Translations under genes and position numbers: made by a program
Notes under the pieces: model-generated
What the model saw: the letters and a program-made list of their open reading frames with translations, nothing else
Told to the model about the DNA's origin: nothing
The model's database searches: none
In this document: positions 24,316 to 48,237 of the stretch, piece by piece
Position numbering within the stretch: the stretch's first letter is position 1
How the letters are laid out: each line of letters begins with the position of its first letter
From: an uncultured delta proteobacterium
Lineage (GTDB): Bacteria; Desulfobacterota; BSN033; UBA1163
Length of the DNA stretch: 64,000 nucleotides
Reading direction: 5' to 3'
Assembly (NCBI GenBank): GCA_963827685.1
Contig: CAWHBU010000005.1
Coordinates: 160,001 to 224,000 of the forward strand

Positions 24316-24422
24316 GGGCTTTTTCTGTTTATCGAGTTTATTGGGCTTCTTGGGTTTAAAGCCTGGTAACTTCCTATTTTTAATCAATTCAACTCAAGAA
24401 ACCCAAGAAACTCAAAAAACTT
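24316..24422. repeat. Inverted arms of five phased 9-nt units, no gene inside, directly after NusG-paralogue stop
   Basis: G(T/C)T at 24318,27,36,45,54; AA(T/C) at 24382,91,400,409,418. Confidence 0.8.
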
Positions 24423-24423
24423 A

Positions 24424-24975
24424 TTATGCCGCCTTTTTAATATGCGAACGAGAGATTTGAATGGGTACCTCAACACCAATCAGATTGAGCAGAATCCTTA
24501 CCCGTCCATTATCTGAGATCTTCTTCTGAAAGATTCCGTTGAATTCTTTAAATGGACCTGAAGTAATCTGAACGACGTCGCCCTCTTTTAGTTCTTCCTC
24601 TAACTTTACAAGATTATCCTTCCCCATTCTCTCCTTAATCGCCAGGACGACTTTATCAGAAATAGGCATCGGCCCATCTCCAAAACCCAGAAGTTTACTG
24701 ACCCCCCTTGTCCACTTCACCTTATAGTAATGAAGATTAAGATCGAGTCTTGCAAAGAGGTAGCTTGGAAAGAAGGGTTTTATCGTCTGAATTACGTTTC
24801 CGTTTCGATATTGATGGTTTTGGATCAAAGGAAGGAAGGTTTCAATCTTTTGATTAAGGAGATGAGTCTCCACACGATGTTCAGCGCCTGGCTTAGTATG
24901 GACAACAAACCAATCGAGACCGTCAAATGAATTTATCGGACTGCTTTGGTCCTCTAAATTCATCTTGCCCCCCAT
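24424..24975 (-). CDS. NusG-paralogue antiterminator (RfaH/UpxY/LoaP-like)
   Basis: WFVVHTKP, PFFPSYLF NGN domain; KOW motif GDVVQITSGPF. Confidence 0.88.
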   Translation of the reverse strand: MGGKMNLEDQSSPINSFDGLDWFVVHTKPGAEHRVETHLLNQKIETFLPLIQNHQYRNGNVIQTIKPFFPSYLFARLDLNLHYYKVKWTRGVSKLLGFGDGPMPISDKVVLAIKERMGKDNLVKLEEELKEGDVVQITSGPFKEFNGIFQKKISDNGRVRILLNLIGVEVPIQISRSHIKKAA

Positions 24976-24977
24976 TT

Positions 24978-26186
24978 TTAAACAGGTTTTTCAAGATGCG
25001 ACCTGTTCTTCTCCAAATATTCCATAAAGAAGGCCATCATGATCGAAGCTAAGAGACCCACCACCCCCGCTATCATTACATTTAGTCGCTTTTTAGGTTT
25101 GATCGGAAACTCTGGGGGTATGGCAGGAACTGAAACCTGAATTGTTGTCGATTTAATCGCTGAAGAGACCTTTGTCTCCTCTCCTTTTTTGGAAAGGATC
25201 TCATAAGTGTTTCTCGCTGTGTCCACGTTTCTTGTCAGTCTGGTCTGAATAAGCTCTTGTTCTGCTAATTGCTTTTTCAATCCGCTAACCTCTTCATTGA
25301 GATTTTTGACATTCTCTTTTAATTGAAGAATTTCAGCATTGAAGGATTGGATATTTACAGCCGTATCTGCCGTTCTCGAACTTAGACCAACATAAAGAGG
25401 ATTAATTTCCTCTTTTCCAATTAGCCCTTTATCCACAGGCATAGTTCTTTCCTGCTCTTTTATCTGGGCTGTCAATTCTTTATAACGTGCCTTTTCCATC
25501 ATTAAGGAACGGTTTGAATCATCCAATTTGACTTCATATTGCACAACTTGTTTAATCTTGCCAGAAATTTGTTCTTTCAGGAGATCTACTTTATTGACCT
25601 TCTGAAATTTCTCCAATTCTTCTTCGGAAGTCTTTAGACTCATTTTGGCCTTTTCTAATTGACCCATAACAAAGGCATAGGTGTTGCTTGTTTCCTTGGA
25701 AGTGACCTCCTCGTTTCTCTCGATAAAAGTAGAGGACCATTCGTTGGCAATCTGAGCAGCTCGATCCTTCGATGTATCTTGAACCTTTAATAAGATCAGG
25801 TTGGTATTTCTCGGATACTCGATTTTGACCTGTTTCAAGATTTTCGTAACCGTGTATTCATGGCCAGGATTGGTCAGCCCCAGTTTTGTAACCACAGTTT
25901 TTGCAGTATGTTCGTTCAAAATCATTTTTGAGAATGTTTCGGCAGAAACATTCTCAAAGATCGGAGTAGATATTCGAGGGCCCTCTTTAGTAGCAAATTC
26001 TACTTGGTATTTTGGTGATGTGACCATCAGGTAGGTTTTGGCTTCATAGATCTTTGGCAATAGGAAACTGACTATTCCTGCCACAACCATACAGAGAAGT
26101 GTTCCAATGATAATCAGCCATTTCCTTTTCTTGATCACCTGAATATAATCCATTAAGTTGATTTCGTCGGGTGTAATCTCATTCAT
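24978..26186 (-). CDS. Polysaccharide chain-length determinant (Wzz/GumC family)
   Basis: DEINLMDYIQVI, N-terminal TM, coiled coil, PEFPIKPKK plus C-terminal TM; start placed at MNEITPDE. Confidence 0.85.
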   Translation of the reverse strand: MNEITPDEINLMDYIQVIKKRKWLIIIGTLLCMVVAGIVSFLLPKIYEAKTYLMVTSPKYQVEFATKEGPRISTPIFENVSAETFSKMILNEHTAKTVVTKLGLTNPGHEYTVTKILKQVKIEYPRNTNLILLKVQDTSKDRAAQIANEWSSTFIERNEEVTSKETSNTYAFVMGQLEKAKMSLKTSEEELEKFQKVNKVDLLKEQISGKIKQVVQYEVKLDDSNRSLMMEKARYKELTAQIKEQERTMPVDKGLIGKEEINPLYVGLSSRTADTAVNIQSFNAEILQLKENVKNLNEEVSGLKKQLAEQELIQTRLTRNVDTARNTYEILSKKGEETKVSSAIKSTTIQVSVPAIPPEFPIKPKKRLNVMIAGVVGLLASIMMAFFMEYLEKNRSHLEKPV

Positions 26187-26524
26187 TCTCTTTGCTCTTT
26201 GCCTCTTGAACAAAAATAACAATTAGACCAACATCTCAAGCTAAATGGGTTCCTTACCCTGTCTCTTGGACACTGCATTGGTGTTCTTAAATCGATCCAT
26301 ATATTCTTTAGAACTAAAAGGGCTTTGTTTTTTTATCAAGGATTATTCGATTTCCCCCACCCGTGGGTTCTAAAGCTTAGTATTCAAAAAACAATTAATT
26401 TTCTTTTATGTTTTTCACTTTTTTACATCTGGTGTCCGCTTCCCAAGAACAAATGTAAGCTAATTTTAGGGCTTTTTCTCAATCCGGCGGGAACCTTTGT
26501 AAGTCCCAGTCGGTCGGACACTGT

Positions 26525-26780
26525 TTAAGCTGATCCTTCGCGCTTTTTGCGTCTCTGTTTCGAGGCTCCCGATTCCTCCATATTTCCGACGACTTTCAGG
26601 ATTGCGTAGTAGACCACCTCCCAAATCTGAGTCGCTTTGGGGTTGACCGCTGCTCTCATGATGGCTCCCAACATCCTTGAAGGAGAAATGCCAGAAGGCT
26701 TGATAAATTTCTCAAATTCGCGCCATACGTGCCGACTCAGGTAGAGGGTAGGGTAATGTTGATCCGTTTATCTCGATGCC
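26525..26780 (-). pseudogene. Probable ribbon-helix-helix (CopG-like) gene disrupted by a 5-bp duplication
   Basis: Removing one copy of GGGTA (26746-55) gives DKRINITLYLSRHVWREFEKFIKPSGISPSRMLGAIMRAAV...GSA*; no in-frame start found. Confidence 0.4.
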
Positions 26781-26816
26781 AATCTTTGGCAGATGTTTTC
26801 TGCCCAGTGGAATAAA

Positions 26817-26845
26817 CCTATACACCCCCTTTCATTCTTTGTCAA
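26817..26845 (-). promoter_or_regulatory. Sigma70-like promoter pointing toward wzz
   Basis: TTGACA-17 nt-TATAGG on minus strand. Confidence 0.5.
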
Positions 26846-27025
26846 GGTTTTTTCACAGATCAGTTGAATTGGGAAGTCTCAACCTTGTTATAAAGAAAAT
26901 TGCAAGAGCAAATAGGAAGGCTTCGTAATCATTAAAGAATTTGTGGAGTGCAGTCTAAGTAGTAAAAGAGGATTTGTATCGGACAGGGCAAAGTTCGCTC
27001 CAACAGGCATTATTCGATTCTTTTA

Positions 27026-27925
27026 TTAATTCAGTGGTTGATAATAGACCACCTTCCTTCTCTCAACTGGGAATCTCAAGAAGATGTACGTCCTTGTTTT
27101 CTTCTCGTCGGCTCCAATCTTAATCGTTCCTTGGTTGCGCAGCACCACTTCCTTAACAAAACGAAGGATGAGATCCGATGCCTCTTCTTTTTGGAGCGTG
27201 GCCATTTCCAATACCGGTTCGCTCGGTCTCTGATGCCCTGGAAATACCACCGAGATCTCAACATATTTTCCATCCTTCTTGAATAAACTTTGAACCTCGC
27301 TTGCCTCCTTCTCAAGGATGAAAGATCTTGTTGACAGGCCAAGGTTCCAGTTGGGAGGCGTCAAGGCCAGGGCATATTGAAGGACAGATCCTATGATATA
27401 CTTCAACTGTTCATCAGGGACAATGGTTTCGGGAAGATCCTTTTCTAATCTTTTAAGTACCTTGATTCCCTTCTCTTCCAATTTAGCCTGGTGTTTCTTC
27501 AACACCTCCTCAATGATATTATGAATCGTGTTCACTTTTCGGATCGGCGTGTGGACCTTAATGTAATCAAGAAGACTATTCAATACCATATCCATCTTCT
27601 CAATATCCCCGGTCACCGTCCGATAATAATATTCACCGAATTCACTATCACTAAATTTTCCTCGCGAAATTTGCGTATAATTTTTAATGGAGGCGAGACT
27701 GTTCTTAATCCGTTGGATTAAATCAATAAAAAAGGAGGTCAAGAAAGGGGCGTTTTGTTCATTTGACAAAAAATCTAATTTAGACTTAATGGATTCTATC
27801 CCCTCTTCAACCGAAGAGGGGGGGGAGGGCGTTTTTTCATTTTCAATTTCGAAAAGATTCCAATCCATCTCGATCACCAAACCTTTCTTAATGGAATTAA
27901 ATCCAATTCCCAAATCCGTAATCAT
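27026..27925 (-). CDS. Degenerate histidine-kinase-like protein (HisKA/HATPase fold, catalytic motifs lost)
   Basis: DLIQRIKNSLASIK in place of xxAHEIKNPL; QLKYIIGSVLQYAL in place of the N box; no G boxes; ends IFLRFPV. Confidence 0.7.
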   Translation of the reverse strand: MITDLGIGFNSIKKGLVIEMDWNLFEIENEKTPSPPSSVEEGIESIKSKLDFLSNEQNAPFLTSFFIDLIQRIKNSLASIKNYTQISRGKFSDSEFGEYYYRTVTGDIEKMDMVLNSLLDYIKVHTPIRKVNTIHNIIEEVLKKHQAKLEEKGIKVLKRLEKDLPETIVPDEQLKYIIGSVLQYALALTPPNWNLGLSTRSFILEKEASEVQSLFKKDGKYVEISVVFPGHQRPSEPVLEMATLQKEEASDLILRFVKEVVLRNQGTIKIGADEKKTRTYIFLRFPVERRKVVYYQPLN

Positions 27926-28125
27926 TATATATAGACTTTACTAAAAACTCAATATTGAAAACATAAATGAAGGCATAAGATCTCAACATTTTTCTCTTTT
28001 CACCAACGTGATTTGACACTTATTAACACGATTTTACATAGCTGAGAAATTTAATATTTGAGAAATATTATGAAATGGTTTTGTCAGGAAGCTTCCTCAA
28101 TAAATGAGGAGATAAAATTATGGCT

Positions 28126-29280
28126 TCACTCTTTAAAAGCAGTCATGGGTTCCACCATCAACTCGCCTTTTTCGAAGCGCCCGATGGAAAGAGAGGAGAT
28201 GTTGATTGTATTCGCCCCTCCGTTTGCGATCAGCTCTGAGATCACTTTTCCCACTGCAGGGCTATGCTGAAATCCGTGTCCGCTAAAACCATTGGCGAGG
28301 ATAAATCCTTCTACCTCGGGAACCTTTCCGAGGATAGCATGGTGGTCCGGAGATATCTCATAAAGTCCTGCCCATCCCCGGGCAATACGAGCCTTTTCGA
28401 GAACCGGAACGCGGCAAATTGCATTCTCCGAAGTCTCGGCCATGGCTTCATAGTCGATATTGAGGTTAAAACTCGGCTCCAGGTCTAACGGGCCAGAGAG
28501 GAGCAATCCATCACCTTCCTGACGGAAATACCATCCCCGGTGAAAATCAATGGTCAGCGGAATAGGACGGTCGGTGAGATGGAAGGGGGCCGTAATAAAG
28601 ATTTGCCTTCTCAAAGGTTTGACAGGAATTTTGATACCTACCATTTCCCCTATGGAAGCAGCATAGGGTCCTGCTGCATTGATCACCACACGCGTGGAAA
28701 TCTCTTCGTCCTTTGTTTTGACACTACGAATCTTCCCTTTTGCTAATGAGATTCCCATGATCTCCATTCCTTCGTAGATTTTGACACCTGCCCTCTTCGC
28801 ACCACTGGCAAACCCGGAGAGAATTTCACTCGGGCCTGCATACCCATCCCAGGAGCATAATGTCCCTCCCAGGATATCGTCGATTCTCAAGCAGGGCCAG
28901 CACGACCTGATTTCATTAGGACTTAAGAATTCAACAGGAATATTAAATTTTTTCTGGAGCTTCATATTCTCCTTGAAGACTCCGATCTCTCTTTCAGTAG
29001 TCGCTAAAAAGAGATAGCCAATTCTTTTGAATTCTGGGTTGACTCCGAATTCCTCTTCGAATCGTTCGAAGGTCTTTAATGATTCGAGTGAGAAACGAAT
29101 ATTAATCTCTGTAGAAAATTGGACTCGAATGCCTCCCACACAGCGGCTGGTGGAACCTTCTCCCAATTGCCCCTTCTCGAAGAGGACAATCTTCCCTGGC
29201 CTTTTCAGGGCAAGATAGTAAGCAATGCTCAGGCCAACAATACCACCTCCGATAATAACTATGTCCGCTGTTTTTTCCAT
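28126..29280 (-). CDS. FAD-dependent oxidoreductase (DAO/sarcosine oxidase beta-like)
   Basis: IIGGGIVG, VINAAGPYA, GFSGHGFQHSPAVG. Confidence 0.88.
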   Translation of the reverse strand: MEKTADIVIIGGGIVGLSIAYYLALKRPGKIVLFEKGQLGEGSTSRCVGGIRVQFSTEINIRFSLESLKTFERFEEEFGVNPEFKRIGYLFLATTEREIGVFKENMKLQKKFNIPVEFLSPNEIRSCWPCLRIDDILGGTLCSWDGYAGPSEILSGFASGAKRAGVKIYEGMEIMGISLAKGKIRSVKTKDEEISTRVVINAAGPYAASIGEMVGIKIPVKPLRRQIFITAPFHLTDRPIPLTIDFHRGWYFRQEGDGLLLSGPLDLEPSFNLNIDYEAMAETSENAICRVPVLEKARIARGWAGLYEISPDHHAILGKVPEVEGFILANGFSGHGFQHSPAVGKVISELIANGGANTINISSLSIGRFEKGELMVEPMTAFKE

Positions 29281-29339
29281 GGGAGCCTACCATGAGGATA
29301 GAATATGGTAATCGGATTGAACCGCTTCGGTATTCCTTT

Positions 29340-30905
29340 TTAACGTTTCATCTTTCTTTTAACGATATTCAGCAAAAAAAGCATCTCCTCATTCTTCATC
29401 CAATAAGAGCAAGCCAAATAGATTCCGAGGCCGGCAATCATCCCTGCCCCCAGGAGAAATATCTTTTCGATCGTATTTCCGGAAACCGTCCAGTCTCTCA
29501 GAGAACAGATTGAATAAACCGTTAACCCCATGAGAAAACTGCATAAAAACATTTTAAGGAGCGCCTTAATGTTTTTTATGACATCGAACCCGCCTAATCG
29601 ACAATTCAATTTCCAATAGAGAAGAAAGAGGTTCAGCATGGAGGAGAGGCTGGTCGCCAGTGCCAGACCGGCATGTTTTAAAGGGTGTATGAAGATAAGG
29701 ATCAGGACGATATTGACCCCCAGGCAGATGAGACCGATCTTAAAAGGGGTCCACGTATCCTGGAGGGAATAAAAAGCCGGGGCAAGCACCCGGACCCCTC
29801 CGATTGCCCAGAGGCCGATGGAATAGCATAGAAGCGCTTTGGCCGTCATTTCAGTGGCAACATAATCGAACGCTCCCCTTTGCAGAAGCAGATTGAGAAT
29901 GGGAGTTTTCAACGAGATAAGACCCACCGCAGCAGGAATGCAAATAAATGAACCCAGCCGAAAGGCAAATGAGACCGTTTCTTTGAATTCTTCGGTCTTT
30001 CCCTGAGCAACCAGTGACGAAAAACTCGGGAGTGCAGCCGTTCCGATCGCAATCACGAATATTCCCAATGGAAATTCCATGAGCCGGTCCGCATAGTAGA
30101 GATAGGAAACGCTTCCATCGGCAAGAGACGTGGCAAACATCGTGTCGATAAGCACATTGATCTGGTAGACGGCGGTTCCGATCAATCCCGGAATCATCAG
30201 AAATCCGATTCGCTTAATGGCAGGATGCCTGAAATTGAGATCGAATCGGAAGCTGATCTTCTTTTTTATTAAAAAAGGGACCTGAAAGAAAAACTGAAGC
30301 ATTCCTCCCGCAAGAACACCCATGGCCAATGCCATGACCGGTTTTTGAAAATGATGATAGAATAAGAAGGCCGAGGCAATGATAGAGAGATTGAGGAAAA
30401 CGGTAGCAAACGCCGGTGCGAAGAAATGCCTGAGGGAGTTCAAAATTCCCATAGAGAGAGCAAATAACCCGATAAAAAACAGATACGGGAACATAATCCG
30501 GTTTAAGGTAACGGCCAGGTGAAATTTTTCTGAGGTTGGGGGCCATGTCCAGGCAAATATTTTGATCAAAATCGGAGAGAAGACAATTCCGAGAACTGTC
30601 AGAACGAGCAATAGCACTCCACCGATCGTAAAAGCGATATGTGTGACTTCCTGCGATTCCTTTTCTGTTCGCTGAGTGAGGTATTCTGTATAGACAGGGA
30701 TGAAAGAGACGGTCATTGACCCTTCTCCTACCAATCGTCTCCAGAGATTTGGAATTCGGAAGGCGACGAAAAAGGCGTCGGTTGCCATTCCTGCCCCGAA
30801 AAAGTAGGCAACCACCATATCCCTGAAGAAGCCTGAGATACGACTGAGGAGCGTTCCTGTCCCGATGAGCGTAGCTGCTTTCGTGATTTTATGGTTTTCA
30901 GACAT
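29340..30905 (-). CDS. murJ: Lipid II flippase
   Basis: LSRISGFFRD, AFRIPNLWRRLVGEG, LYYADRLMEFPLG; divergent from rpsT. Confidence 0.95.
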   Translation of the reverse strand: MSENHKITKAATLIGTGTLLSRISGFFRDMVVAYFFGAGMATDAFFVAFRIPNLWRRLVGEGSMTVSFIPVYTEYLTQRTEKESQEVTHIAFTIGGVLLLVLTVLGIVFSPILIKIFAWTWPPTSEKFHLAVTLNRIMFPYLFFIGLFALSMGILNSLRHFFAPAFATVFLNLSIIASAFLFYHHFQKPVMALAMGVLAGGMLQFFFQVPFLIKKKISFRFDLNFRHPAIKRIGFLMIPGLIGTAVYQINVLIDTMFATSLADGSVSYLYYADRLMEFPLGIFVIAIGTAALPSFSSLVAQGKTEEFKETVSFAFRLGSFICIPAAVGLISLKTPILNLLLQRGAFDYVATEMTAKALLCYSIGLWAIGGVRVLAPAFYSLQDTWTPFKIGLICLGVNIVLILIFIHPLKHAGLALATSLSSMLNLFLLYWKLNCRLGGFDVIKNIKALLKMFLCSFLMGLTVYSICSLRDWTVSGNTIEKIFLLGAGMIAGLGIYLACSYWMKNEEMLFLLNIVKRKMKR

Positions 30906-30974
30906 AATGCGTCACTTCAAAAGACCTTGACACAAGCTATACTAAAATGTTAAAAAAATCAATAATATCATTGC

Positions 30975-31045
30975 AGATTGAAGAATTTAGGGATTTAGGA
31001 ATTTTGAAATTCGCAATCCCTCAATTCCTGAATTCTTTAATTCAT
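30975..31045. repeat. Inverted phased 8-nt unit hairpin in rpsT leader
   Basis: ATT at 30977,85,93,31001,31009; AAT at 31015,23,31,39; ends ~8 nt before the AGGAGG RBS. Confidence 0.8.
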
Positions 31046-31066
31046 TAAGAAAAAGGAGGCGAAATT

Positions 31067-31354
31067 TTGGCAATCCATTTATCGGCGATTAAACGGGCAA
31101 GACAAAACGAAAAGAGAAGGCTTCGAAACCTCCACATCAGAACCACAGTGAAGTCCTCTGTGAAAAAAGTGAGGGCAGCCATTGAGAAAAAAGATGTTGA
31201 AGGGGCCCAAAAGGCTTTGTCGAAGACAATCCCTCTAATCCAGAAATCTCACTCCAAGGGTGTCTTTCATAAAAATACCACTGCCAGGAAAATATCCCGG
31301 CTCACCCGGGAAGTCGACGCCCTATCCGCAGAGCGCAAAGAGCATAGCGCATAG
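31067..31354 (+). CDS. rpsT: 30S ribosomal protein S20
   Basis: HLSAIKRARQNEKRRLRN, KGVFHKNTTARKISRL; AGGAGG RBS, TTG start. Confidence 0.95.
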   Translation: MAIHLSAIKRARQNEKRRLRNLHIRTTVKSSVKKVRAAIEKKDVEGAQKALSKTIPLIQKSHSKGVFHKNTTARKISRLTREVDALSAERKEHSA

Positions 31355-31359
31355 CGAAT

Positions 31360-32376
31360 TCACCGCGGACGGCAGAGGTCAATCACCAACTTCTCCATTA
31401 AAAGATCCTTGGGTCCCCGGCTCCTCTTAATAGCTAAGTCGGACTGATGACACTTTCGGATTCCTTCTTTAAGTGAAGCCTCAGAGAAATTCTTCCCTTG
31501 ATCCATCAATTTCCTTATATTCCACGGTGGCGTTCGCAGTTCTTTGGCCAGGTCCCCCATATCCTTATGACGAGAACTCATCTGTTTGATCACCAGCATA
31601 CTCCAATATTGCTTTGCCATCATGCCCAATAGTAGTGGAACAGGGTCCTTCTTTGAGGGCTCTTCGTCCTTTTTAAATGAAATAGCCCCTAAATCCATAG
31701 CCTTTTCTAAAATTCCGAGGGCTTTCTCCAAGTTTTGATGACCAATCGCATCGGTTAAATCGAAGACCGTGCTCACCTTGACCTCTGAGGTAACTTCTTC
31801 CATGTCGGAAAGCTCGATGTTCCGTTTCTCTCCAACACTCAAAAAGACCTTCTCCAGTGCGTTGTCGAGATCGTATAGGTGATCTCCCACTACCTCAACC
31901 AAATAGTCTGCAGACTCATCCGAAAGCGTTTTCCCCTTTTCCTTCATCCTATTCTTCATCCAGGAAACTAACGCCCTGCCCTTTAATCGTGTATATTCAG
32001 TCACGTTCCCTTCTTTTTCGATCTCTTTCCGATGTACCTTCCAGGGGCCTATCGTCTGACCATAGAGAACGAGGCAGGTAGAGAGGGAAGGTCTTTTTAT
32101 ATATTCCATCAATGCTTCCACCTTCTCCTCATCCATGCGATCAGCTTCGCGGACGAGAACAAATCGATACGGAGAAAGCATCGGGAGCGTCTGTGCGGCC
32201 CGGACGATCTCCTGGCCGCTGTGTTCTTCTCCGTCAAAAAGATGGAAGTTAAATCCTCTTTCTTTTGGAGAAAGTGTTTGATTTAAAAGTTTCTGAATTT
32301 CCTCTTCGATGAGGTAGTCCTCAGGCCCGAATAGAAAATAGACCGTGTAAATGTCTGAGGTTGCTTTGGCTTTCAT
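31360..32376 (-). CDS. holA: DNA polymerase III delta subunit
   Basis: YFLFGPEDYL, AQTLPML, VFDLTDAI; conserved position next to rpsT. Confidence 0.9.
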   Translation of the reverse strand: MKAKATSDIYTVYFLFGPEDYLIEEEIQKLLNQTLSPKERGFNFHLFDGEEHSGQEIVRAAQTLPMLSPYRFVLVREADRMDEEKVEALMEYIKRPSLSTCLVLYGQTIGPWKVHRKEIEKEGNVTEYTRLKGRALVSWMKNRMKEKGKTLSDESADYLVEVVGDHLYDLDNALEKVFLSVGEKRNIELSDMEEVTSEVKVSTVFDLTDAIGHQNLEKALGILEKAMDLGAISFKKDEEPSKKDPVPLLLGMMAKQYWSMLVIKQMSSRHKDMGDLAKELRTPPWNIRKLMDQGKNFSEASLKEGIRKCHQSDLAIKRSRGPKDLLMEKLVIDLCRPR

Positions 32377-32385
32377 TCTATAACG

Positions 32386-36914: not shown

Positions 36915-36922
36915 TTAACATA

Positions 36923-37523: not shown

Positions 37524-37556
37524 AAAACAAGAGATTCCTTCTTCTCTGCCACTTTT

Positions 37557-38480: not shown

Positions 38481-38484
38481 GAAC

Positions 38485-39048
38485 CTACTCTTTGACCCTT
38501 TTCGAAAATTCACCCGTTCGGGTATCAATGGTAATCAGCTCACCTTCTTCGATGAACGGAGGGACGCGAAGTACATAGCCGGTTTCTAACGTAGCGGGCT
38601 TGAAATCCGCCTTCGAGGTATCTCCTCTCACCCAAGGCTCCGTCTTAATTACCCTGAGATTGACGAAGTTCGGCAACTCGACCCCAATCGCTCTATCTCC
38701 GAACAACAGGACCTCCACATTAAAATTTTCGATCAGAAAGTTCTTGGCATCCCCCAGAGATTCCTCGTTGATAATGATCTGTTCGTAGGTTTCATTATCC
38801 ATGAAGTGATAGTGATCACCTTCCTTATAAAGAAATTGCATGGCTCGTTCTTCTAATGAAGCGGGCTCGAAGGTTTCTCCCTCACGATACGTTCTATCAA
38901 TACTTAAGCCCGTGATCATATTCCTCAGTTTCGTCCGATAAAGGGCTTGGCCCTTGCCGGGTTTGGAAAATTCGAAAGCCGTCACGATGTACGGTTCTCC
39001 ATCAATGATGACTTTCAAGCCCTTTCTTAAATCCGAAGCAGTATACAT
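38485..39048 (-). CDS. efp: Elongation factor P
   Basis: KPGKGQA loop, KPATLETG, VPPFI, DTRTG. Confidence 0.96.
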   Translation of the reverse strand: MYTASDLRKGLKVIIDGEPYIVTAFEFSKPGKGQALYRTKLRNMITGLSIDRTYREGETFEPASLEERAMQFLYKEGDHYHFMDNETYEQIIINEESLGDAKNFLIENFNVEVLLFGDRAIGVELPNFVNLRVIKTEPWVRGDTSKADFKPATLETGYVLRVPPFIEEGELITIDTRTGEFSKRVKE

Positions 39049-39061
39049 AGCTTATTCTTTT

Positions 39062-39147
39062 TCCCTCATCCCCTTCCGCCCTCAAGGGGCAAAGGTAAGC
39101 CTGCTTGCCCTGCCTATTGCAGGCAGGCGCAGGCAGGGGTGGGGGTA
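39062..39147. repeat. Nested GC-rich palindromes (REP-like)
   Basis: cctgcttgc[cctgcctattgcaggcagg]cgcaggcagg (39100-39137) inserted in the arm of a ccctcatcccc...ggtgggg hairpin. Confidence 0.7.
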
Positions 39148-39160
39148 AATCTTCATTCCG

Positions 39161-39760
39161 TCAAAAATTATAAAAGAAACGCTCTCGAATTCGTTCCGCC
39201 ATGGATCCTGCCGTCTTTTGAATGGCAGCTTGTTTAGCCGCTTCGTTGGTAACACCACTGGATGAAGCCCGAAACCATTGGCTTTCACTCAAACCATTCT
39301 CCTCCCAAAGGACCTTCCCGGTCCGGTCCTTCAGAGATAAACCGACGACGATACCGATCTGATATTGCAAAACAAAACCAGATTTATCATAAGCAACTGA
39401 ATAGGTGGTAAAAGATCCGACAACACCTTCCAAAATGGCATCTGCTTCTGCCCGGCTTACGACCTTCACCCTTCTATCTTGGATGAACTCGTTCAAAAAA
39501 GCTTGAGTGAATGGGATTTCAATTCCAGGCTCAAAGGTATTGTTTTTGAACGTTGGGATGGCAATGGAACTGAGACCTGGTGGAACATGTGTCTCCTTAC
39601 CGACCATCTGGTATCCACAGGCCACTAGCAGAACCAGGCTGATAATTGATAACCACCTGTAATTTCGGATTTCGGATTGCGGATTGGGGAATTTCTCTGT
39701 GGTTGAGTTAACAGGTAAAGACCCTAAACTGACATTCTGGATTCTGTCTTCTGTATTCAT
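39161..39760 (-). CDS. lptE: LPS assembly lipoprotein LptE
   Basis: Lipobox LLVAC-GY; position after leuS; N-terminal extension encoded partly by heptamer repeats. Confidence 0.82.
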   Translation of the reverse strand: MNTEDRIQNVSLGSLPVNSTTEKFPNPQSEIRNYRWLSIISLVLLVACGYQMVGKETHVPPGLSSIAIPTFKNNTFEPGIEIPFTQAFLNEFIQDRRVKVVSRAEADAILEGVVGSFTTYSVAYDKSGFVLQYQIGIVVGLSLKDRTGKVLWEENGLSESQWFRASSSGVTNEAAKQAAIQKTAGSMAERIRERFFYNF

Positions 39761-39771
39761 CTTTTCCGTTC

Positions 39772-42369
39772 TTAACATACAATATTGACCAGTTTTTTGG
39801 GCACGAGGATCACCCGTTTGATCTCCTTACCTTCAAGCAATTTCCGAATTCTCTCACTTTTTAATGCCCAGGCCTTTACTTCCTCCCCCCCATACGAGGC
39901 AGGAATAGTCATCCGATCCCTCAATTTTCCATTCACCTGAATGACCATCAAGACTTCATCTTCCAAAACGGCTTCCGGGTCGTAATCGGGCCATCGGGTT
40001 TTGACGATCGATTCCCGATTCCCCAGCGCTTCCCAGAGCTCTTCGGCAAAGTGAGGGACAAAGGGCGAGAGCAAAACGACCACTGTCTCAAGCGCCTCGC
40101 GCAATACCCTTCTGGAAATATCATCGGCGTTGTCTTTGACCTCCGAAACGTAGATCTCATTCACCAATTCCATGACGGCACTGATCGCGGTGTTAAAATG
40201 GAATCGTTCAATGTCTTCCGTGACCCTTTTGATCGTTTTGTGGGTCTTCTGCCGTAGAGATTTTTGACCTCCCTCAAGGACTGTTCCGAAAGGAAGTGGT
40301 TTTACATTTTCAAGATGACGATGCTGCTCATAAAAGAGTCTCCAGACCCGATTGAGGAAACGGGCAGACCCGTCCACTCCCTGGTCGCTCCAATCCAAAT
40401 CCTTCTCAGGCGGAGAAGCGAAGAGGCAAAACATCCTGGCCGTATCCGCACCGTATTTCTCAATCAAGTATTCAGGGTCGACCACGTTCTTCTTGGATTT
40501 GGACATCTTTTCAAGCCTTCCGATAGAGATGAGGCTGCCGCACTTTCGGCAACGAATCGTCTCTCCCTGCCCCTCCATCTCATCGGGGAAGAGATAACCA
40601 TCCTTGGCACACTCGTATACTTCTTTACAAACCATCCCCTGAGTCAAAAGGTTTGTGAACGGCTCATCGACGCTTACCCATCCCATCTCTTTTAGAACAC
40701 GGGTGAAAAATCGGGAATAGAGAAGGTGCAGAATCGCATGTTCAATCCCTCCAATGTATTGATCCACGGGCATCCAGTAATCCACCCGTTTTTTGTCTAA
40801 AGGACCCTTATCATAGTCAGGGCATGCAAACCGATCGAAATACCAAGAGGACTCGACAAAGGTATCCATGGTGTCTGTCTCCCTTCGGCCTGGCCCCCCA
40901 CATTGAGGGCACCGGGTTTCCACAAACTCTTTTAACCCAGAAAGAGGCGACTTTCCCATCCCGGTGATCTCTATATTGGAGGGAAGGACGACAGGAAGAT
41001 CTTTTTCGGGGACGGGGACAGTTCCACATCGCCCGCAGTAAATGATGGGGATGGGCGCTCCCCAATAACGCTGTCTGGAAATGCCCCAATCCCTTAATCG
41101 ATAACTGATTCTGCTTCCACCGAGTCCCTTCTCATCGAGATATTGAGCGATTTTCTCTCTTGCTTTAATGCTATCCATTCCGTTAAATTGACCGGAGTTG
41201 ACCAGAAAGCCTTCTCCTTCATAAGCCTCCGTCATCGTGTTAGCATCCAGAACTCGATCCTCTGGTTGGACGACCACAATCAAAGGGAGTCCGAGTTTCT
41301 TCGCAAATTCAAAGTCTCTCTGGTCGTGGGTGGGCACAGCCATCACTGCTCCCGTTCCATACTCCATCAAAACAAAATTGGCAACGAAAATGGGCATCCG
41401 GGCCTGGGTCACCGGATTCAGGCAATAACCTCCGGTGAAAACACCCTCCTTTTCTGTCGTCTCAGCGGTCCTCTTTATCTTGTCCTGCCGTCTCATTCTT
41501 TCGACGAATTCTTGTACCGCCTGCTCCTGTGAGGTCCCTTTGGAGAGGCTCAGGGCAAGGGGGTGTTCGGGTGCCAAACTCATGAATGTTGCGCCAAATA
41601 CTGTATCCTGCCGGGTGGTGAAGACTTTAATGACCTCTTTCGAATGCTCCAAAGGAAAATGAATTTCAGCGCCGATGGACTTTCCAATCCAGTTGCGTTG
41701 CATGGTGAGAACCCGTTCGGGCCATCCAGGAAGTTTATCGCACCATTCGAGAAGTTCTTCTGCGTATGCCGTGATTTTAAAGAACCATTGATCCAGCTCT
41801 TTCTGTGTGACACCTGGATCATCGGCATGGCCTCGCCAGCATGTCCCGTCGCTCATCACCTGTTCATTCGCCAAAACGGTGTTGCAGATCTCACACCAAT
41901 TAACAAAGGACCTCCTTTTATAGGCCAATCCCCTCTCATACATTCTTACGAAGAAGAGTTGCTCCCATTTGTAATAGGATACGTCACAGGTAGCAAACTC
42001 CCGATCCCAGTCATAGCTGAAGCCCATCCGCTTCAACTGACTTCTCATGGTACCAATGTTCTCGTAAGTCCATTTGGCAGGGTGAACTCCACGCTCCATC
42101 GCAGCGTTTTCCGCAGGCATGCCAAAGGCATCCCAGCCCATGGGGTGTAGGACATTAAAGCCTTTCATCTTTTTGTAGCGGGCAACAACATCCCCGATAG
42201 AGTAATTCCGTACGTGGCCCATGTGGATCTTGCCCGACGGATAGGGGAACATTTCAAGAAGATAATATTTCTCTTTATTCCGGTCCTCCGTCACCTTAAA
42301 GAGATTCTGAATTTCCCAGATCTTCTGCCACTTCTTTTCAATCTCTTCGTGGTGATAACGTTGCTTCAT
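39772..42369 (-). CDS. leuS: Leucyl-tRNA synthetase
   Basis: [33 protein letters not shown]. Confidence 0.98.
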
Positions 42370-42386
42370 GCCATTCCCCGATTTAT

Positions 42387-42483
42387 AGTCCAGAGTTCGG
42401 AGTTCTTAGTCCAGAGTAAACTCTCATTTCCTAACTAATTTTTTTTCTTGTAACTCTTAATTCCGAACTCTTAACTCTAAACT
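42387..42483. repeat. Inverted arms of five phased 7-nt units between argG and leuS
   Basis: AGT at 42387,94,401,408,415; A(C/T)T at 42453,60,67,74,81. Confidence 0.85.
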
Positions 42484-42490
42484 AATTTTC

Positions 42491-43693
42491 TCATCCTCTC
42501 ATCATCCTCCGGATTCGGAGTCTCAAAGCATTGAGCCGGATGAACCCTTCCGCATCTTTCTGATTATAGACGATATCCTTCTCAAAGGTAGCGAAGGCTC
42601 CATGGTAGAGAGATTTTTCTGACTTCCGGCCGATCACGGTACAGTTCCCTTTGTAGAGTTTCAGGCGAACCGTTCCGGTCACATCCTTCTGTGTCTCATC
42701 GATCGCTTTCTTCAAAATCTCCATCTCCGGTGAAAACCAGTATCCATAATAGATCAATTCCGATATCTTGGGGATCAGGCTATCCCGAAAATGCATGACC
42801 TCTCTGTCCATGGTCATTGATTCGATGGCTCGATGGGCAATGTGAAGGATCGTTCCCCCCGGAGTTTCATAGACTCCTCTTGATTTCATCCCTACGTAAC
42901 GATTCTCCACCATATCGACCCGGCCGATTCCGTTTCGACCTCCCAACTCATTCAATTGGGACAACAGGACGGCAGGAGAAAGTCCCTTTCCGTCGATCCG
43001 TTTTGGAACGCCATCTTCAAAATCGATTTCAATCACTGTGGGGCGGTCAGGTGCCTTTTCTGGAGAGACGGAGAGAACAAACATATTCTTTGGCGGCTCA
43101 GCCCAAGGATCTTCAAGAATTCCTCCTTCGAAACTGATGTGCAGGAGATTTCGGTCAGAAGAATAAGGCTTCTCTTTTGTCACGGGGATGGGAATTCCGT
43201 TTTCCCGAGCATAGGCGATCAAATCCTCTCTCGACTTAAATTGCCATTCCCGCCAAGGAGAGATCACCCGAATGTAAGGATTAAGCGCATAGTAGGTCAA
43301 TTCAAATCGGACCTGATCGTTCCCCTTCCCTGTAGCCCCATGAGCCACGGCATCTGCCCCCTCTAATTGGGCTATCTCCACCTGCCTCTTGGCGATTAAG
43401 GGCCGAGCGATGGAAGTGCCGAGGAGATAAGTTCCCTCATAGATGGCATTGGCTTTTATTGCTGTCAAGACATAATCCCGAACGAACTCCTCCCTGAGGT
43501 CCTCAATATAGACCTTACTGGCACCTGTGGCTCTGGCCTTTTCTTCCAGGTGATTCAATTCTTCGGCCTGGCCGATATCTGCAGTGAAAGCGATCACCTC
43601 ACACCCAAATTCATTTTTCAACCATTTCAAAATGATAGAGGTGTCCAGGCCCCCGGAATAAGCCAGGACTACCTTCTTCACTACGCCTTTCAT
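42491..43693 (-). CDS. argG: Argininosuccinate synthase
   Basis: [35 protein letters not shown]. Confidence 0.98.
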
Positions 43694-43708
43694 GGAAACC
43701 CCCTTATC

Positions 43709-43876
43709 AATTTCCGATTTCGGATTGCGGAATTCGGATTATAGTAACTTGGATTCAAAGCTTCGCAGTCCGGATTCAACATTCTGTATTATAAGAATAT
43801 TTCCACCAATTTCGGAATTCGCGACAAAAGCACTTGAATTTACATTCCGCAATCCGCATTCGGTACTCCGCAATTG
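43709..43876. repeat. Inverted arms of five phased 7-nt units between argD and argG (~100-nt spacer)
   Basis: atttccg atttcgg attgcgg aattcgg att / attccgc aatccgc attcggt actccgc aat. Right arm lies inside the argD 3' end. Confidence 0.85.
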
Positions 43877-45063
43877 AAAAAGACTTCCTCTAAAGCCTTG
43901 ACCACTCGGTCGACTTCTTCCTTAGTGACAATCAGCGGAGGAAGGAACCGGAGCACATTTCCCATGGTGCAGTTGATGAGAATTCCTCTCTGCATCATCT
44001 CCGTGACAATAGAACCCCCCTCCATCTTCAACTCCATGCCAAGGATCAAACCTTTCCCTCGAACCTCCTCAACGAAAGGAAATTTTTTCTTGATCTTCTC
44101 GAGCTGCGACAGGAAGTAATCTCCTACGTTTCGGCAATTCTCCAATATCCCTTCGTCCAAAAAGGCTGTCAAGGCGGCTACACCCGCTGCGGTGGCCAAG
44201 GGATTCCCTCCAAAGGTGGAGGCATGGTCACCTGGGTTAAAACTCTCAGCGATTCCTTTCTTGATCAATAAAGCTCCAATGGGGACTCCTCCTGCCAATG
44301 ATTTGGCAAGCGTGAGGATATCGGGTTCAACCCCGTCATGCTCATAAGCAAAGAGTTTCCCCGTCCGGCCCATCCCCACTTGGACCTCATCAAAGATGAG
44401 GAGGAGCCCCTTCTCATCACAGATCTCACGGAGCGCTTTCAGATAACCCTCTGAAGGGCAGTTCACTCCTCCTTCTCCCTGGATGGGTTCCAACATGACA
44501 GCACAGGTTTTCGAATTGATGCCCTTCTTCACTGCCCCGATATTGTTGAAGGGGACATATTTGAACCCAGGCATCAGAGGTTCATACCCTTTGTGGAACT
44601 TCTCTTGACCCGTTGCGGTCAGGGTGGCCAGAGTCCTGCCGTGGAAGGATCGCTCCATGGTGATGATCTCATATCGATCCTTTCCCATCTTCTCCTTTGC
44701 ATATTTCCGGGCCAATTTCATTGCACCTTCATTGGCCTCAGCCCCGCTATTGCAGAAGAAGACTTTATCAGCAAAGGAGTGCTTACAAAGAAGAGAAGCG
44801 AGCTGGATCTGAGGTTCGATATAATACAGGTTTGAGACATGGATCAGTCTTTCTGACTGATCTTGAATGGCCTTGACAACTTTCGGGTGGCAGTGGCCTA
44901 AACTGCATACCCCCAGGCCCGATACAAAATCCAAATATTCTTTGCCCTCCATATCCCAAACCCGAGTTCCCTTCCCTCTGACCAGAAGCACGGGATAACG
45001 GGCATAGGTATTGGCCACGTATTTTTCCGATAACATCATCATGGTTTGAGAATCCATCTGCAT
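43840..45063 (-). CDS. argD: Acetylornithine aminotransferase
   Basis: NSGAEANE, FHGRT, EPIQGEGG, DEVQVG, AKSLAGG. Confidence 0.93.
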   Translation of the reverse strand: MQMDSQTMMMLSEKYVANTYARYPVLLVRGKGTRVWDMEGKEYLDFVSGLGVCSLGHCHPKVVKAIQDQSERLIHVSNLYYIEPQIQLASLLCKHSFADKVFFCNSGAEANEGAMKLARKYAKEKMGKDRYEIITMERSFHGRTLATLTATGQEKFHKGYEPLMPGFKYVPFNNIGAVKKGINSKTCAVMLEPIQGEGGVNCPSEGYLKALREICDEKGLLLIFDEVQVGMGRTGKLFAYEHDGVEPDILTLAKSLAGGVPIGALLIKKGIAESFNPGDHASTFGGNPLATAAGVAALTAFLDEGILENCRNVGDYFLSQLEKIKKKFPFVEEVRGKGLILGMELKMEGGSIVTEMMQRGILINCTMGNVLRFLPPLIVTKEEVDRVVKALEEVFFNCGVPNADCGM

Positions 45064-45075
45064 CTCGAAAAAATC

Positions 45076-45150
45076 AGTTTGGAGTGATTAGTCCGGTGTC
45101 CGGAGTATCTATTTTAAATCTCCGAACTCCCGAACTCCGAACTCAAAACT
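45076..45150. repeat. Inverted arms of five phased 7-nt units between argB and argD
   Basis: (A/T)GT at 45076,83,90,97,104; (T/A)CT at 45119,26,34,41,48. Confidence 0.85.
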
Positions 45151-45152
45151 TC

Positions 45153-46037
45153 TTATTCTCTCGTGATCTGTGTCCCAATCCCTATATCCGTAAAAATCTC
45201 CAACAGGATCGCATGCTCCACCCTTCCATCAATGATATGGGTTTTGGCCACCCCTTCTTCTAAGGCATTGAGGCAGCAATTTACCTTTGGAATCATTCCG
45301 GACGAGATGACTTTTTGGGTGATTAATCGCTTTGCTCGTCCAACATCGAGCGTGGCCATCAACCGATGTCTCCCATCCATCACTCCCTCCACATCGGTAA
45401 GTAATATCAATTTTTCCGCCTTTAGCGCAGAGGCTATCTTCCCAGCCGCCAGATCCGCATTGATATTGTAGGTCTCTCCTTCGTCCCCTACGCCCACCGG
45501 TGCAATGACCGGAATGAAATTCTCCTTCTCCAAGGCCTCGATCACCCCAGGGTTGATGGCCTTTACTTCCCCCACCATTCCGATGTCAATGATTTCGGGC
45601 ATTTCACCCTTACCGCGACGCTTCGTCAATTGCAATTTCTTGGCGGTGATGAGATGTCCGTCTTTTCCGCTCAGCCCGACGGCTTTCCCTCCCTGTTGGT
45701 TGATCAAGGCAACAATCTCTTTATTTACCTTCCCGACGAGGACCATTTCCACGACATCCATCGTCTCTCCGTCTGTTACCCTCATCCCCTCTACGAAATA
45801 AGATTTCTTCCCTACCTTGGTCAACATTTCACCGATCTGAGGCCCCCCCCCGTGGACGACAACAGGGTTAAGGCCGATATATTTCAAAAGAACGACATCG
45901 AGAGCGAAGCTCCGCTTCATTCTCTCTTCCTCCATGGTGCTCCCGCCATACTTAATCACGATGGTTTTGTCATAGAATCGCCGAATATATGGAAGGGCCT
46001 CCAGAAGTACCTTGGCTTTATCAATGGCGTTTCCCAT
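45153..46037 (-). CDS. argB: Acetylglutamate kinase
   Basis: [29 protein letters not shown]; start at ATG 46037 with GAGGG RBS. Confidence 0.96.
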
Positions 46038-46074
46038 AACGATGATCCCTCGCGTTAGTTCGGAAACCTTTTTC

Positions 46075-46118
46075 TTCGTGTCCGTGTTCGGACACGTGAC
46101 ACACGACACGGTCACGAA
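46075..46118. repeat. Short inverted 6-nt-periodic hairpin between hslU and argB
   Basis: ttcgtgtccgtgttcg...cgacacggtcacgaa, directly after the hslU stop. Confidence 0.65.
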
Positions 46119-47450
46119 TTACAAGATATACCGGCTCAGATCTTCATCCTCTACAAAATCTTTCAGCTTCTCTCGGACATATTTCGCATCGATCACCATG
46201 CTTTTCCCGGACATCTCAGGGGCATCAAACGAAATCTCATCCAGTAATTTTTCCATCATGGTATAGAGCCGCCTGGCTCCGATGTTCTCTGTCCTCTCAT
46301 TAATGAGAGCCGCCATCTCGGCAATCTCTGCAATGCCATCCTCTTTAAAATTGACCTTGACCGACTCTGTCTCCAACAAAGCGGTGTACTGTTTGATCAG
46401 GGCGTTTTCTGGCTCGGTGAGGATTCGCACGAGATCTGCCTTACCTAAAGAATCCAATTCGACCCGGATCGGAAACCGCCCCTGAAGCTCAGGGATGAGA
46501 TCCGAGGGTTTGGAAACATGGAATGCTCCGGCAGCAATAAACAAAACATGGTCTGTCTTGACCATCCCGTATTTCGTCGTCACCGTCGTCCCTTCCACAA
46601 TGGGCAGGATATCCCTCTGAACGCCTTCCCGAGAAACATCCGGACCCAAGGTGGATTCCCTTCCAGCGATCTTATCAATTTCGTCAAGGAAGATAATTCC
46701 CGATTGTTCGACCCGCTCAATGGCCTGTTTGATGACGGAGTCCATATCGATCAGTTTATACGCCTCCTCCTGGGAGAGGATGGTGACTGCTTCCGGAACC
46801 TTCACCTTTCTCTGCTTTTTCTTCTTCGGAAAGAGACTCCCAAACATATCTTTGATGTTGACATCCATCTCTTCCAATCCAGAGGCAGAAAAGATCTCGA
46901 CAATAGGAAGGTTTCGGTCCACAATCTCCACATCCACATACTTGTCATTTAACTTCCCGGCCTTCAGCAACTTTCGCAGTTTTTCGCGAGTAGCTCGCTG
47001 ATCTTCGCCTTCCTTCTGTGTCCCCTTCCCAGAGGAAGGGAGGAGCAAATCCAGGAGCCGCTCTTCAGCTATCTCCTCTGCTCTCTGTCGGACCTTTTGG
47101 GACTCCTCCGCTTTCATCATATTGACAGCCAGCTCCGTGAGATCCCTGATCATCGACTCCACATCCCTGCCTACATAACCCACTTCTGTAAATTTCGATG
47201 CCTCAATCTTCAGAAAAGGAGCCTGGGCCAATTTAGCCAACCTTCGAGCGATCTCTGTCTTACCGACCCCCGTGGGGCCAATCATAATGATGTTCTTGGG
47301 CGCAATTTCGTCCCGGAGAGGCTCCGGAACCTGTTGACGTCTCCAACGGTTTCTCAATGCAATGGCCACCGCTCTCTTCGCATCCGTCTGCCCGACAATG
47401 TATTTATCCAGTTCGGACACGATCTCCCGGGGGGTGAAGGTCTTCATCAC
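46119..47450 (-). CDS. hslU: ATP-dependent protease ATPase subunit HslU
   Basis: [39 protein letters not shown]. Confidence 0.98.
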
Positions 47451-47980
47451 AATTCCTCCACGATGATTTGATCATTCGTATAAATGCAGATGGAGGCAGC
47501 GATCTTCATCGCCTCTACAGCGATGGCCCTGGCATCCAAATTTGAAAACTCAACCAATGCCTTGGCAGCAGCATGGGCATAAGGACCGCCACTTCCAATG
47601 GCCGTCACCCCATCGTCGGGCTCAATGACATCCCCATTTCCGGAGATGACGAGCGTGTGTTCAGAGTCGGCGATGATGAGCAAGGCCTCCAACCTACGGA
47701 GGATCCGATCCGTTCTCCAATCTTTGGCCAATTCCACGGCTGCCCTGAGTAGATTCCCGCTGAACTGGTCCAGTTTTTCCTCAAACTTTGCGAAAAGGGT
47801 GAAAGCATCTGCCGTGGCCCCTGCAAAACCAGCGAGAACTTTATCATGGTAAATCCTTCGAACCTTCCTGGCAGTATGCTTCATGATGGTGTGTTCAAGA
47901 GACACCTGACCGTCCCCTGCCATGACCACCTTTCCTTTGTGCCGAACTGATAGAACCGTCGTACCCCGTATCTTGTGCAT
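47447..47980 (-). CDS. hslV: ATP-dependent protease subunit HslV
   Basis: [30 protein letters not shown]; start trimmed because the longer ORF runs through a repeat. Confidence 0.96.
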
Positions 47981-48035
47981 TGCTTCAGTCCTCATTTTCA
48001 TCCCTTTCCCCACTCTCACCAGTCTTACGGATTTA

Positions 48036-48237
48036 AAATCCCAAATCCCAATTTCCAAATCCCAAATAAATTCCAACCTCCAATTCCCAATAATGAAAAT
48101 GATTTTGTTTCGAATTTGGAAATTTGATCATTGGAATCTATTTGTAATTTGGCCTGCCTGCGCGAAGCCCCGCCTGCCAAAGCCTTGTGCGGCGGGCAGG
48201 CGCTTCGGCGAAGGCAGGTGCTTGAGGCTTGGTGTTT
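48036..48237. repeat. Long heptamer-periodic inverted repeat between xerC and hslV, one arm interrupted by nested GC-rich palindromes (48153-48218)
   Basis: aaatccc-type units vs atttgg-type units with a mirrored 4-nt phase shift; deleting 48153-48218 restores atttgta atttggt gcttgag gcttggt. Confidence 0.85.

Follow-up and report, generated by a model that had tools for sequence, protein, structure and literature searches.

Intervening sequences of 23S rRNA occur with or without an open reading frame (ORF) for the S23p protein; they are known from Coxiella and Leptospira, and ORF-less forms from Salmonella, Yersinia and Campylobacter. Their origin and mobility are old open questions. Genes of the corresponding protein family, PF05635, and those of the GxxExxY family are small, very common and present in many copies, and we know of no function for them outside the Avd cofactor of diversity-generating retroelements. 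Other short repeats also populate bacterial spacers. REP/BIME are abundant extragenic palindromes of transcribed spacers, with units of about 35 nt, a species-wide consensus and a link to RAYT transposases. Families of the Correia/NEMIS and ERIC type are conserved over their full length and have defined duplications of the target, and the cyanobacterial STRR are heptamer tandem repeats that form similar short intergenic arrays. As described in PMC4990558, the Coxiella intervening sequence is 428 nt long, with the S23p ORF in its loop and a 28-bp terminal stem that RNase III cuts. The subject of the present analysis is a stretch of 64,000 nucleotides (the window; positions 160,001 to 224,000 of contig CAWHBU010000005.1, assembly GCA_963827685.1) from an uncultured delta proteobacterium of sediment. 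Seven spacers of the window hold imperfect inverted repeats with arms made of tandem 6–9-nt units. We consider it fairly probable that these seven sites are ORF-less members of a genome-wide class of palindromic intergenic elements akin to intervening sequences, of which the ORF-bearing members carry PF05635 or, in relatives, GxxExxY.

The inverted arms at all seven sites are evident from reading of the sequence and from folds, and Tandem Repeats Finder (TRF) reports arrays at six of them, the exception being 46075–46118. The tandem-unit sites named in the original prediction are therefore real, and represent a family spread over the whole genome. An automatic scan at a score of at least 36 recovers five of the seven, missing 45076–45150 and 46075–46118. 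Genes of the window lie mostly on the minus strand, one run being xerC-hslV-hslU-argB-argD-argG-leuS-lptE-efp, and every site lies between protein genes. The hairpin at 24317–24427 (minus strand, 9-nt units, about 5+5) directly follows the stop of a NusG paralogue (gene 24424–24975); its best-pairing core is 24327–24359/24388–24420, with a loop of 28 nt. The hairpin at 30973–31045 (plus strand, 8-nt GAATTNNN units, about 5+4) occupies the divergent murJ/rpsT spacer, with its 3′ end about 15 nt upstream of the rpsT ribosome-binding site (RBS), and folds at −26.9 kcal/mol on the rpsT sense strand versus −19.8 kcal/mol on the opposite strand. The other five are on the minus strand. Three of them have 7-nt units and fill their spacers: argG/leuS (42386–42484; GAGTTNN/NNAACTC, 5+5), argD/argG (43709–43880; TTCGGAT type, 5+5, arms 43711–43744/43847–43880 around a 102-nt loop) and argB/argD (45076–45150; GAGTTCG type, 5 + 4–5).

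At hslU/argB, the shorter element of 6-nt units in the original prediction is borne out: a short hairpin with about 3+3 units of the CGTGTC type directly follows the hslU stop, at 46075–46118. Its placing between the two genes does not agree with the longest argB ORF call, within which the hairpin falls. The start of that call is probably too early, given that the Pfam match sets in at residue 50 and that relatives align from residue 2–27 (most from 25–27). The xerC/hslV site was described as one compound 7-nt element. Its first part stands as a hairpin of 7-nt units (48036–48139; AAATCCC/GGGATTT type, 5+5, arms 48036–48070/48104–48139). The second is a separate GC-rich palindrome (48150–48235, no strand assigned; CCTGCC.../...GGCAGG), a different kind of repeat that has no tandem units. 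Copies of the AAATCCC/GGGATTT family are spread widely: at this hairpin the depth of metagenome contigs is very high, and many contigs have loose ends at 48036 and 48076.

The genome, a 5.23-Mb assembly in 14 contigs, is rich in such arrays. TRF finds 504 period-7 arrays of at least three copies, compared with 14 in a locally shuffled genome; the corresponding figures are 114 against 10 for period 6 and 110 against 12 for period 8. Of 499 period-7 arrays, 368 lie outside crude ORFs, in the 15.8% of the genome that is non-ORF space; gene context here and below was taken from crude longest-ORF calls. There are 133 heptamer unit types, a few of which dominate. The sites had been thought to share architecture and not sequence, a view that needs correcting at the level of the unit: AACTCCG alone makes 43 arrays, AATGCGG 34 and AAATTCC 32. 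An inverted partner within 1.5 kb, with G-U pairs tolerated and a score of at least 36, was found for 272 of 821 arrays, against 29 for random placements. These merge to 208 inverted pairs, of which the control implies that about 11% are false, and in 154 pairs the loop is no longer than 200 nt. The 154 short-loop hairpins have a median arm of 34 nt and a median loop of 28 nt. Their mean stem has arms of about 34 nt with 26 Watson–Crick pairs, six transition mismatches and three other mismatches. The tally of units that the original prediction called for gives five per arm as the mode (72 hairpins, with four units in 46 and six in 20), in a scan whose threshold disfavours short arms and is confounded with arm length and unit count. 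The rRNA operon (locus L128; C7:15663–15740 and C7:12488–12617) also has tandem-unit hairpins, one just 5′ of the 23S gene (GTGANNN/CACGANN units) and one in the 23S–5S spacer (CGTGAGN units). Both are distinct from the usual 23S processing stem.

ORF-bearing members of the class have the same arms around a gene. PF05635, the family of the 23S rRNA intervening-sequence protein and an Avd-like four-helix bundle, has 18 matches in the genome. A scan for hairpins that is blind to genes recovers 13 of the 18 as long-loop pairs, with loops of 388–632 nt, and tandem-unit arms are visible by eye around 17. A bracket score of at least 50 is reached by 10 of the 18 and by 56 of 4851 ORFs overall (control 16), many of the 56 being insertion sequences. 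The units of the cassettes are among the commonest families of hairpins and arrays: AACTCCG, AATGCGG/AATCCGC, AACCTT, AATCACG, AACTCTT, AAACCCAAT and TGGAATAN. Fifteen of 16 cassettes examined share the orientation of both neighbouring genes. Arm architecture, unit families and niche are thus the same in hairpins with and without a gene, which upholds the kinship with four-helix-bundle cassettes that had been proposed. As DNA, the two are members of one element class that sits in the spacer between stop codon and RBS. The window itself holds two cassettes on the minus strand. One (1297–1799) encloses a PF05635 gene at 1359–1760 between 8-nt-unit arms, 1297–1333/1764–1799. The other (108–685) encloses a gene at 265–573 between weaker arms of 7–8-nt units, 108–141/652–685, whose score of 42 merely equals the best local control. 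The region that contains them (1–3900) has no synteny by DNA search in five same-genus genomes, and since this polysaccharide region is variable, the two cassettes are not comparable between genomes.

A second cargo family also uses the cassette form. In two same-genus genomes, a GxxExxY gene (PF13366, TIGR04256; a PDDEXK_3 nuclease) lies between periodic inverted arms of the CAGGAANN type (L116:206–466 in genome G002, L117:257–649 in G004), and the orthologous junction of the present genome, G000, is a PF05635 cassette (C2:785108–785566). The nuclease is a candidate mobility factor. The sole PF13366 gene of G000 (C1:21551–21895) sits between rpsK and rpsD in the ribosomal protein operon, with no clear periodic arms. 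A diversity-generating retroelement context for the PF05635 copies was considered and rejected: the single reverse transcriptase gene of the genome (C4:393223) adjoins none of them. Tandem-unit arms of the same families bracket ordinary genes as well, namely lspA and a gene for a B12-binding domain (L081, C2:476688–477352; L082, C3:196051–196751), and at lspA (L081) the coding sequence runs into the 3′ arm. At C4:792733–802126 (L087, L088), beside an HK97-gp10-like gene, small ORFs without a known family are enclosed by strong, nested arms of 9-nt units (AAACCCAAT type, scores to 85). The loop ORFs of L087, L088 and L114, which belong to no family, were ruled out as divergent PF05635 by profile comparison.

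The unit of the arms and the lineage of the cargo are co-inherited. The median identity among the 18 PF05635 paralogues is 25%. Two pairs that have a common arm unit are mutual nearest relatives (78% and 64% identity), and a third pair, 63% identical, has related units. The same pattern extends to other hosts. Relatives of the protein of one cassette, cassette A, were examined at 80 metagenome loci, found in a search with that one protein; 63 loci were usable. Flanking inverted arms score at least 40 at 33 of the 63, compared with 12 in controls, and are also periodic at 16, compared with two in controls. The core of the arm was defined as at least two copies of CGTG[AT] upstream and at least two of [AT]CACG downstream. 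This core is present at 8 of 12 loci with at least 76% protein identity and at 13 of 25 with 52–62%. It is absent from all 18 loci at or below 45% and from 598 random genes, and the reverse arrangement never occurs. CGTG[AT] therefore persists with the protein to 52% identity, in hosts of differing G+C content, and more distant PF05635 clades have arm units of their own. The family is present in 38 of 41 relatives, and at the default threshold a copy is found in each of five order-level genomes that lack a match at E ≤ 1e-30. Hairpin-forming arrays per 100 kb number 0, 0, 0, 0, 0.7 and 0 in six genomes with 0–1 PF05635 copies, and 0.7, 1.7, 3.6, 4.2, 4.3 and 7.0 in six genomes with 6–20 copies. 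The correlation with four-helix-bundle genes that the original prediction looked for is accordingly present (Spearman rho 0.94 over 12 genomes), with a p-value that is overstated because the genomes are related and the samples small, about 45–140 kb from each of the 11 others.

Such correlations are consistent with the explanation, also offered in the original prediction, that the hairpins are trans-acting targets. The pentameric barrel of a PF05635 protein would bind its own arm unit, at about one unit per protomer. The ORF-less hairpins would then be additional sites that tune mRNA processing, stability or translational coupling, or that act on DNA. This explanation is possible, if doubtful; it overlaps the assignment of the hairpins to an element class and does not exclude it. 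It would account for the mode of five units, for the retention of the arm core with the protein lineage and for the way hairpin density follows copy number. Five chains are present in each entry of the two nearest relatives with solved structures, 2GSC (E 5.5e-23) and 2RLD. The description of Avd in bioRxiv 10.1101/2023.10.23.563531 is of a positively charged pentameric barrel that resembles S23 ribosomal proteins and contacts RNA. The number of partners fits less well, as at least 133 heptamer unit types face 18 PF05635 genes, and the largest hairpin families, AAATTCC (23 copies) and AAATCCC (12), have no exact cognate cassette in the genome. The five-unit mode is itself confounded with the detection threshold, and orthologous PF05635 proteins can have different arms. 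Moreover, the same correlations would arise without any binding if arms and gene were co-inherited as one mobile unit.

Turnover of whole elements, by gain, loss or exchange, far outpaces change in the flanking genes. The relatives compared are metagenome-assembled genomes of Syntrophaceae/Thermodesulfobacteriota with ArgG identities of 86–95% and conserved gene order. Nearly all have a tandem-unit hairpin at argB/argD, built from differing unit families: TGGAATAN in nine, a GGGGTC/CAAGG type in five, TTCGAAA in two and GTTAGTC in one, compared with GAGTTCG in the window. At two of 21 loci this spacer is bare, 23–32 nt long and devoid of a hairpin. A junction test based on exact 5-mers is passed at 17 of 21 argB/argD loci (including L007) and 12 of 20 argG/leuS loci; the test is insensitive, and the argD/argG hairpin of the window itself escapes it. 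The 1123-nt argB/argD spacer of L007 was rejected as a filled allele; it holds a Glyco_transf_17 gene (L007:7642–8508), with GATTCGT-like units at its left edge. Exchange is also seen between strains. In one metagenome contig, whose flanking gene sequence differs at none of 169 nt and at 8 of 840 nt, the argB/argD spacer is swapped for 103 unrelated letters; argB and argD of this strain are about 99% identical to those of the window. The argG/leuS spacer is swapped for 83 other letters in two metagenome runs, the 102-nt loop of the argD/argG hairpin is replaced by 2–24 nt in related strains, and one strain has a 13-nt, two-unit insertion at 46080 in the hslU/argB hairpin.

The cassettes turn over in the same manner. 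Cassette C, about 680 nt of arms and gene, fits precisely into the spacer from a stop codon to the following RBS. Two same-genus genomes lack it, with clean edges and spacers of 21–22 nt, and two other genomes have a different PF05635 cassette at the junction. A junction that is empty in the present genome (about 6 nt) is filled in three genomes by two unrelated cassettes. At a fourth cassette junction all five genomes have an insert, and in two of them orthologous PF05635 genes have different arms. The truly empty alleles, four of which can be aligned, are bare spacers of about 6–40 nt without arms, so the suggestion that the gene-less hairpins are empty sites must be abandoned.

These comparisons also bear on whether the hairpins are home-grown structural RNAs, operon-internal stabilizers or processing sites that grew by slippage of units and have no kinship with mobile elements. 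Persistence of the argB/argD hairpin in most relatives, and of that at argG/leuS in 12 of 20, is what such an origin would predict, as are unit-sized indels between strains and the slight folding bias to the sense strand described below. It would not, however, place identical unit families at dozens of unrelated loci or unrelated families at orthologous junctions of close relatives. An entirely different junction sequence in a strain whose flanking genes are about 99% identical is equally foreign to slippage, and the same arms enclose PF05635 genes in whole elements that come and go with clean edges. We regard a purely local origin as improbable.

Of 111 short-loop hairpins clear of crude ORFs, 92 lie in co-directional, 13 in convergent and 6 in divergent spacers; the baseline of spacers of at least 40 nt comprises 2346, 486 and 532, respectively. 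A hairpin begins at a median of 6 nt past the stop codon and ends at a median of 18 nt ahead of the next start (quartiles 11–48 nt), in keeping with the location at stop codons and RBSs that was first noticed in the window. Stable stem-loops after stop codons are reminiscent of intrinsic terminators or attenuators. The 3′ arm, however, is not followed by an enrichment of U-tracts: six or more T occur at 4 of 92 hairpins, compared with 101 of 2130 random intergenic 12-mers. Sense-strand terminator prediction makes no call at any of the seven sites, and no U-tract follows any of them. The lack of terminator U-tracts noted at the outset is thereby confirmed. Stems of about 34 bp far exceed those of terminators, and the hairpins lie between genes of conserved operon-like runs, within 11–48 nt (quartiles) of the next start. 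That they are ordinary terminators or attenuators is most improbable.

Strand preferences are slight. The sense strand folds a little better than the antisense strand at all seven sites of the window and at 55 of 92 hairpins (37 antisense; binomial p 0.076), and 287 mismatches of the G-U type favour the sense strand, against 237. The arm 5′ of the dyad is the G-rich one in 80 of the 111 short hairpins and in all 21 CGTG-type metagenome cassettes, none of which shows the reverse arrangement. This asymmetry is the same on both strands, and hence is not tied to the direction of transcription. A near-symmetric DNA palindrome with weak strand bias and an orientation independent of transcription could be a DNA-level site for a protein, such as a nucleoid protein of the IHF/HU type. 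A precedent is found in Geobacter metallireducens, where pairs of sites on opposite strands, with 3–5 tandem repeats of 7–9 nt, were assigned to unknown global regulators in the account given in PMC2700814. Regulator sites would hardly be depleted from divergent, promoter-only spacers, which hold 6 of 111 hairpins and make up 16% of spacers. The great diversity of units speaks against a single host factor, and the PF05635 or GxxExxY cargo would go unexplained. We think it quite unlikely that the hairpins are sites of this kind.

Several observations weigh against the assignment of the hairpins to a class of mobile, intervening-sequence-like elements. Within a unit family only the units are common, and loops and flanks differ. 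No target-site duplication is evident between filled and empty sites of cassette C, where one boundary was examined closely. Because loops and flanks are unconserved and such a duplication is not evident, classic cut-and-paste behaviour, or that of miniature inverted-repeat transposable elements (MITEs), is not shown. The orthologous PF05635 genes with different arms mean that arm and cargo can separate. The original prediction also took the hairpins for possible remnants of cassettes, a proposal that finds no backing: the PF05635 profile matches none of the 154 short-loop hairpins (best E-value 1.4), and no coding remnant was detected in them. Nor were the filled alleles that it anticipated found. 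None of the seven junctions has a PF05635 gene in 21 syntenic relatives, and the profile has no match in any of 80 argG loci. Arm pairs around ordinary genes such as lspA may be true long-range stems or may be the arms of neighbouring hairpins. Selection at the RNA level is weakly supported by the strand preferences. To these points are added the crude nature of the ORF calls and the small, related sample behind the cross-genome correlation.

If the hairpins and cassettes are such elements, a working model can be put forward. (i) The element would be transcribed along with its operon. (ii) By analogy with the Coxiella intervening sequence, the long imperfect stem would loop the insert out of the operon transcript, so that the stop codon and the next RBS would stay close together. 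(iii) The stem would be a likely site for RNase III or for transcript stability, as is the stem of a 23S rRNA intervening sequence. (iv) The PF05635 protein, presumably pentameric, probably recognizes the repeated units of its own lineage, a step suggested by its pentameric relatives and the mode of five units per arm. A stronger form of the last step is a speculative proposal that we hold to be unlikely: each PF05635 lineage would be a pentameric barrel that reads its own 6–9-nt unit five times per arm, one per protomer, and this recognition would maintain or copy both forms of the element. If five-unit recognition were true, it would define a protein-guided class of mobile palindromic elements in operon spacers, of which the classical 23S rRNA intervening sequences would be a special case, and it would be the first function of PF05635/S23p outside diversity-generating retroelements. 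The significance of the present observations is more immediate. They place PF05635 genes in a defined cassette with tandem-unit arms and abundant ORF-less kin at the junctions of housekeeping operons. Together with an arm unit that travels with a protein lineage, this makes questions of function testable, among them five-repeat binding, cutting by RNase III and copying of the element. There are also practical effects: spacers are inflated and variable, assemblies are broken at contig ends and calls of start codons are misled.

Other repeats of the window deserve mention. GC-rich CCTGCC/GGCAGG palindromes (48150–48235 and 39119–39137, and also at L082) are a separate, dispersed kind of repeat and often adjoin arrays of the AAATCCC type. 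At 39662–39758, heptamer arrays (ATTTCGG, four copies, and ATTCTGT, 3.6 copies) lie within the longest lptE ORF call, upstream of the Pfam match; here the antisense strand folds better, at −29.4 versus −15.8 kcal/mol, and the lptE start is probably overcalled. Two further features, at 13465–14633 and 59653–60541, are an rve-type insertion sequence within the polysaccharide cluster and an NTP_transferase gene that a frameshift has probably broken into two overlapping ORFs.

The class can now be set beside the families introduced above. It shares with REP/BIME the abundance of its extragenic palindromes, and differs in its many unit families and tandem-unit arms. With Correia/NEMIS and ERIC it has in common small intergenic inverted repeats that are co-transcribed with their neighbours, a feature that is presumed here. 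It likewise shows presence/absence polymorphism at orthologous sites, seen here for the cassettes and for the argB/argD hairpin. Unlike Correia/ERIC, it has only the short unit in common, with unrelated loops and no target duplication seen, and its large form carries PF05635 or GxxExxY and not a transposase. According to PMC2649163, RNase III can bind to a Correia element, with cleavage or protection as the outcome. The TAACTGA repeats of Beggiatoaceae, Cyanobacteria and Bacteroidetes, as presented in PMC4679880, are similar in their 2–6 copies of 7-nt units, their intergenic location near start codons and their patchy phylogenetic distribution. Those are direct repeats, with one inverted set among the 170 tabulated, whereas the arrays described here are inverted, hairpin-forming pairs that co-occur with PF05635 genes.

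The closest known matches, judged from the published descriptions drawn on here, are the rRNA intervening sequences and the paired tandem-repeat sites of G. metallireducens. Classes 1–3 of the latter (Aklujkar et al. 2009, PMC2700814) are likewise pairs of sites on opposite strands at variable distance, with 3–5 tandem repeats of 7–9 nt. As described there, they are intergenic within operons (e.g. proB/proA), number dozens per genome and belong to a host of related lineage. This likeness is one of architecture, set against the published description and not against the sequences themselves. The sites were read there as those of IHF/HU-type regulators, and the description of these classes draws no link to PF05635 or to mobility. 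In the literature searched we found no account that links PF05635 cassettes with tandem-unit hairpins, these unexplained paired sites being the nearest. The 23S rRNA intervening sequences, in the description of PMC4990558, resemble the present elements in their terminal inverted repeats, which form a long stem (28 bp in Coxiella) that loops the insert out of the host RNA. They may also enclose a small PF05635 ORF, in a loop of about 400 nt, as compared with the 13 of 18 PF05635 genes found here in long-loop pairs by the blind scan. ORF-less versions of about 100 nt exist, and a sporadic distribution suggests mobility (PMC4990558). The 23S gene of the present genome (C7:12618–15662) shows only small helix expansions in the aligned part seen, with about 120 nt of extra length overall, and no ORF-bearing intervening sequence in the first 650 or so model positions seen. 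The differences are equally plain. The elements described here lie in mRNA spacers between protein genes and not in rRNA helices 9, 25 or 45. Their arms are tandem 6–9-nt units, a feature not found in the description of intervening-sequence stems in PMC4990558. RNase III excises intervening sequences from the transcript, and it may likewise cut the stems of the present elements.

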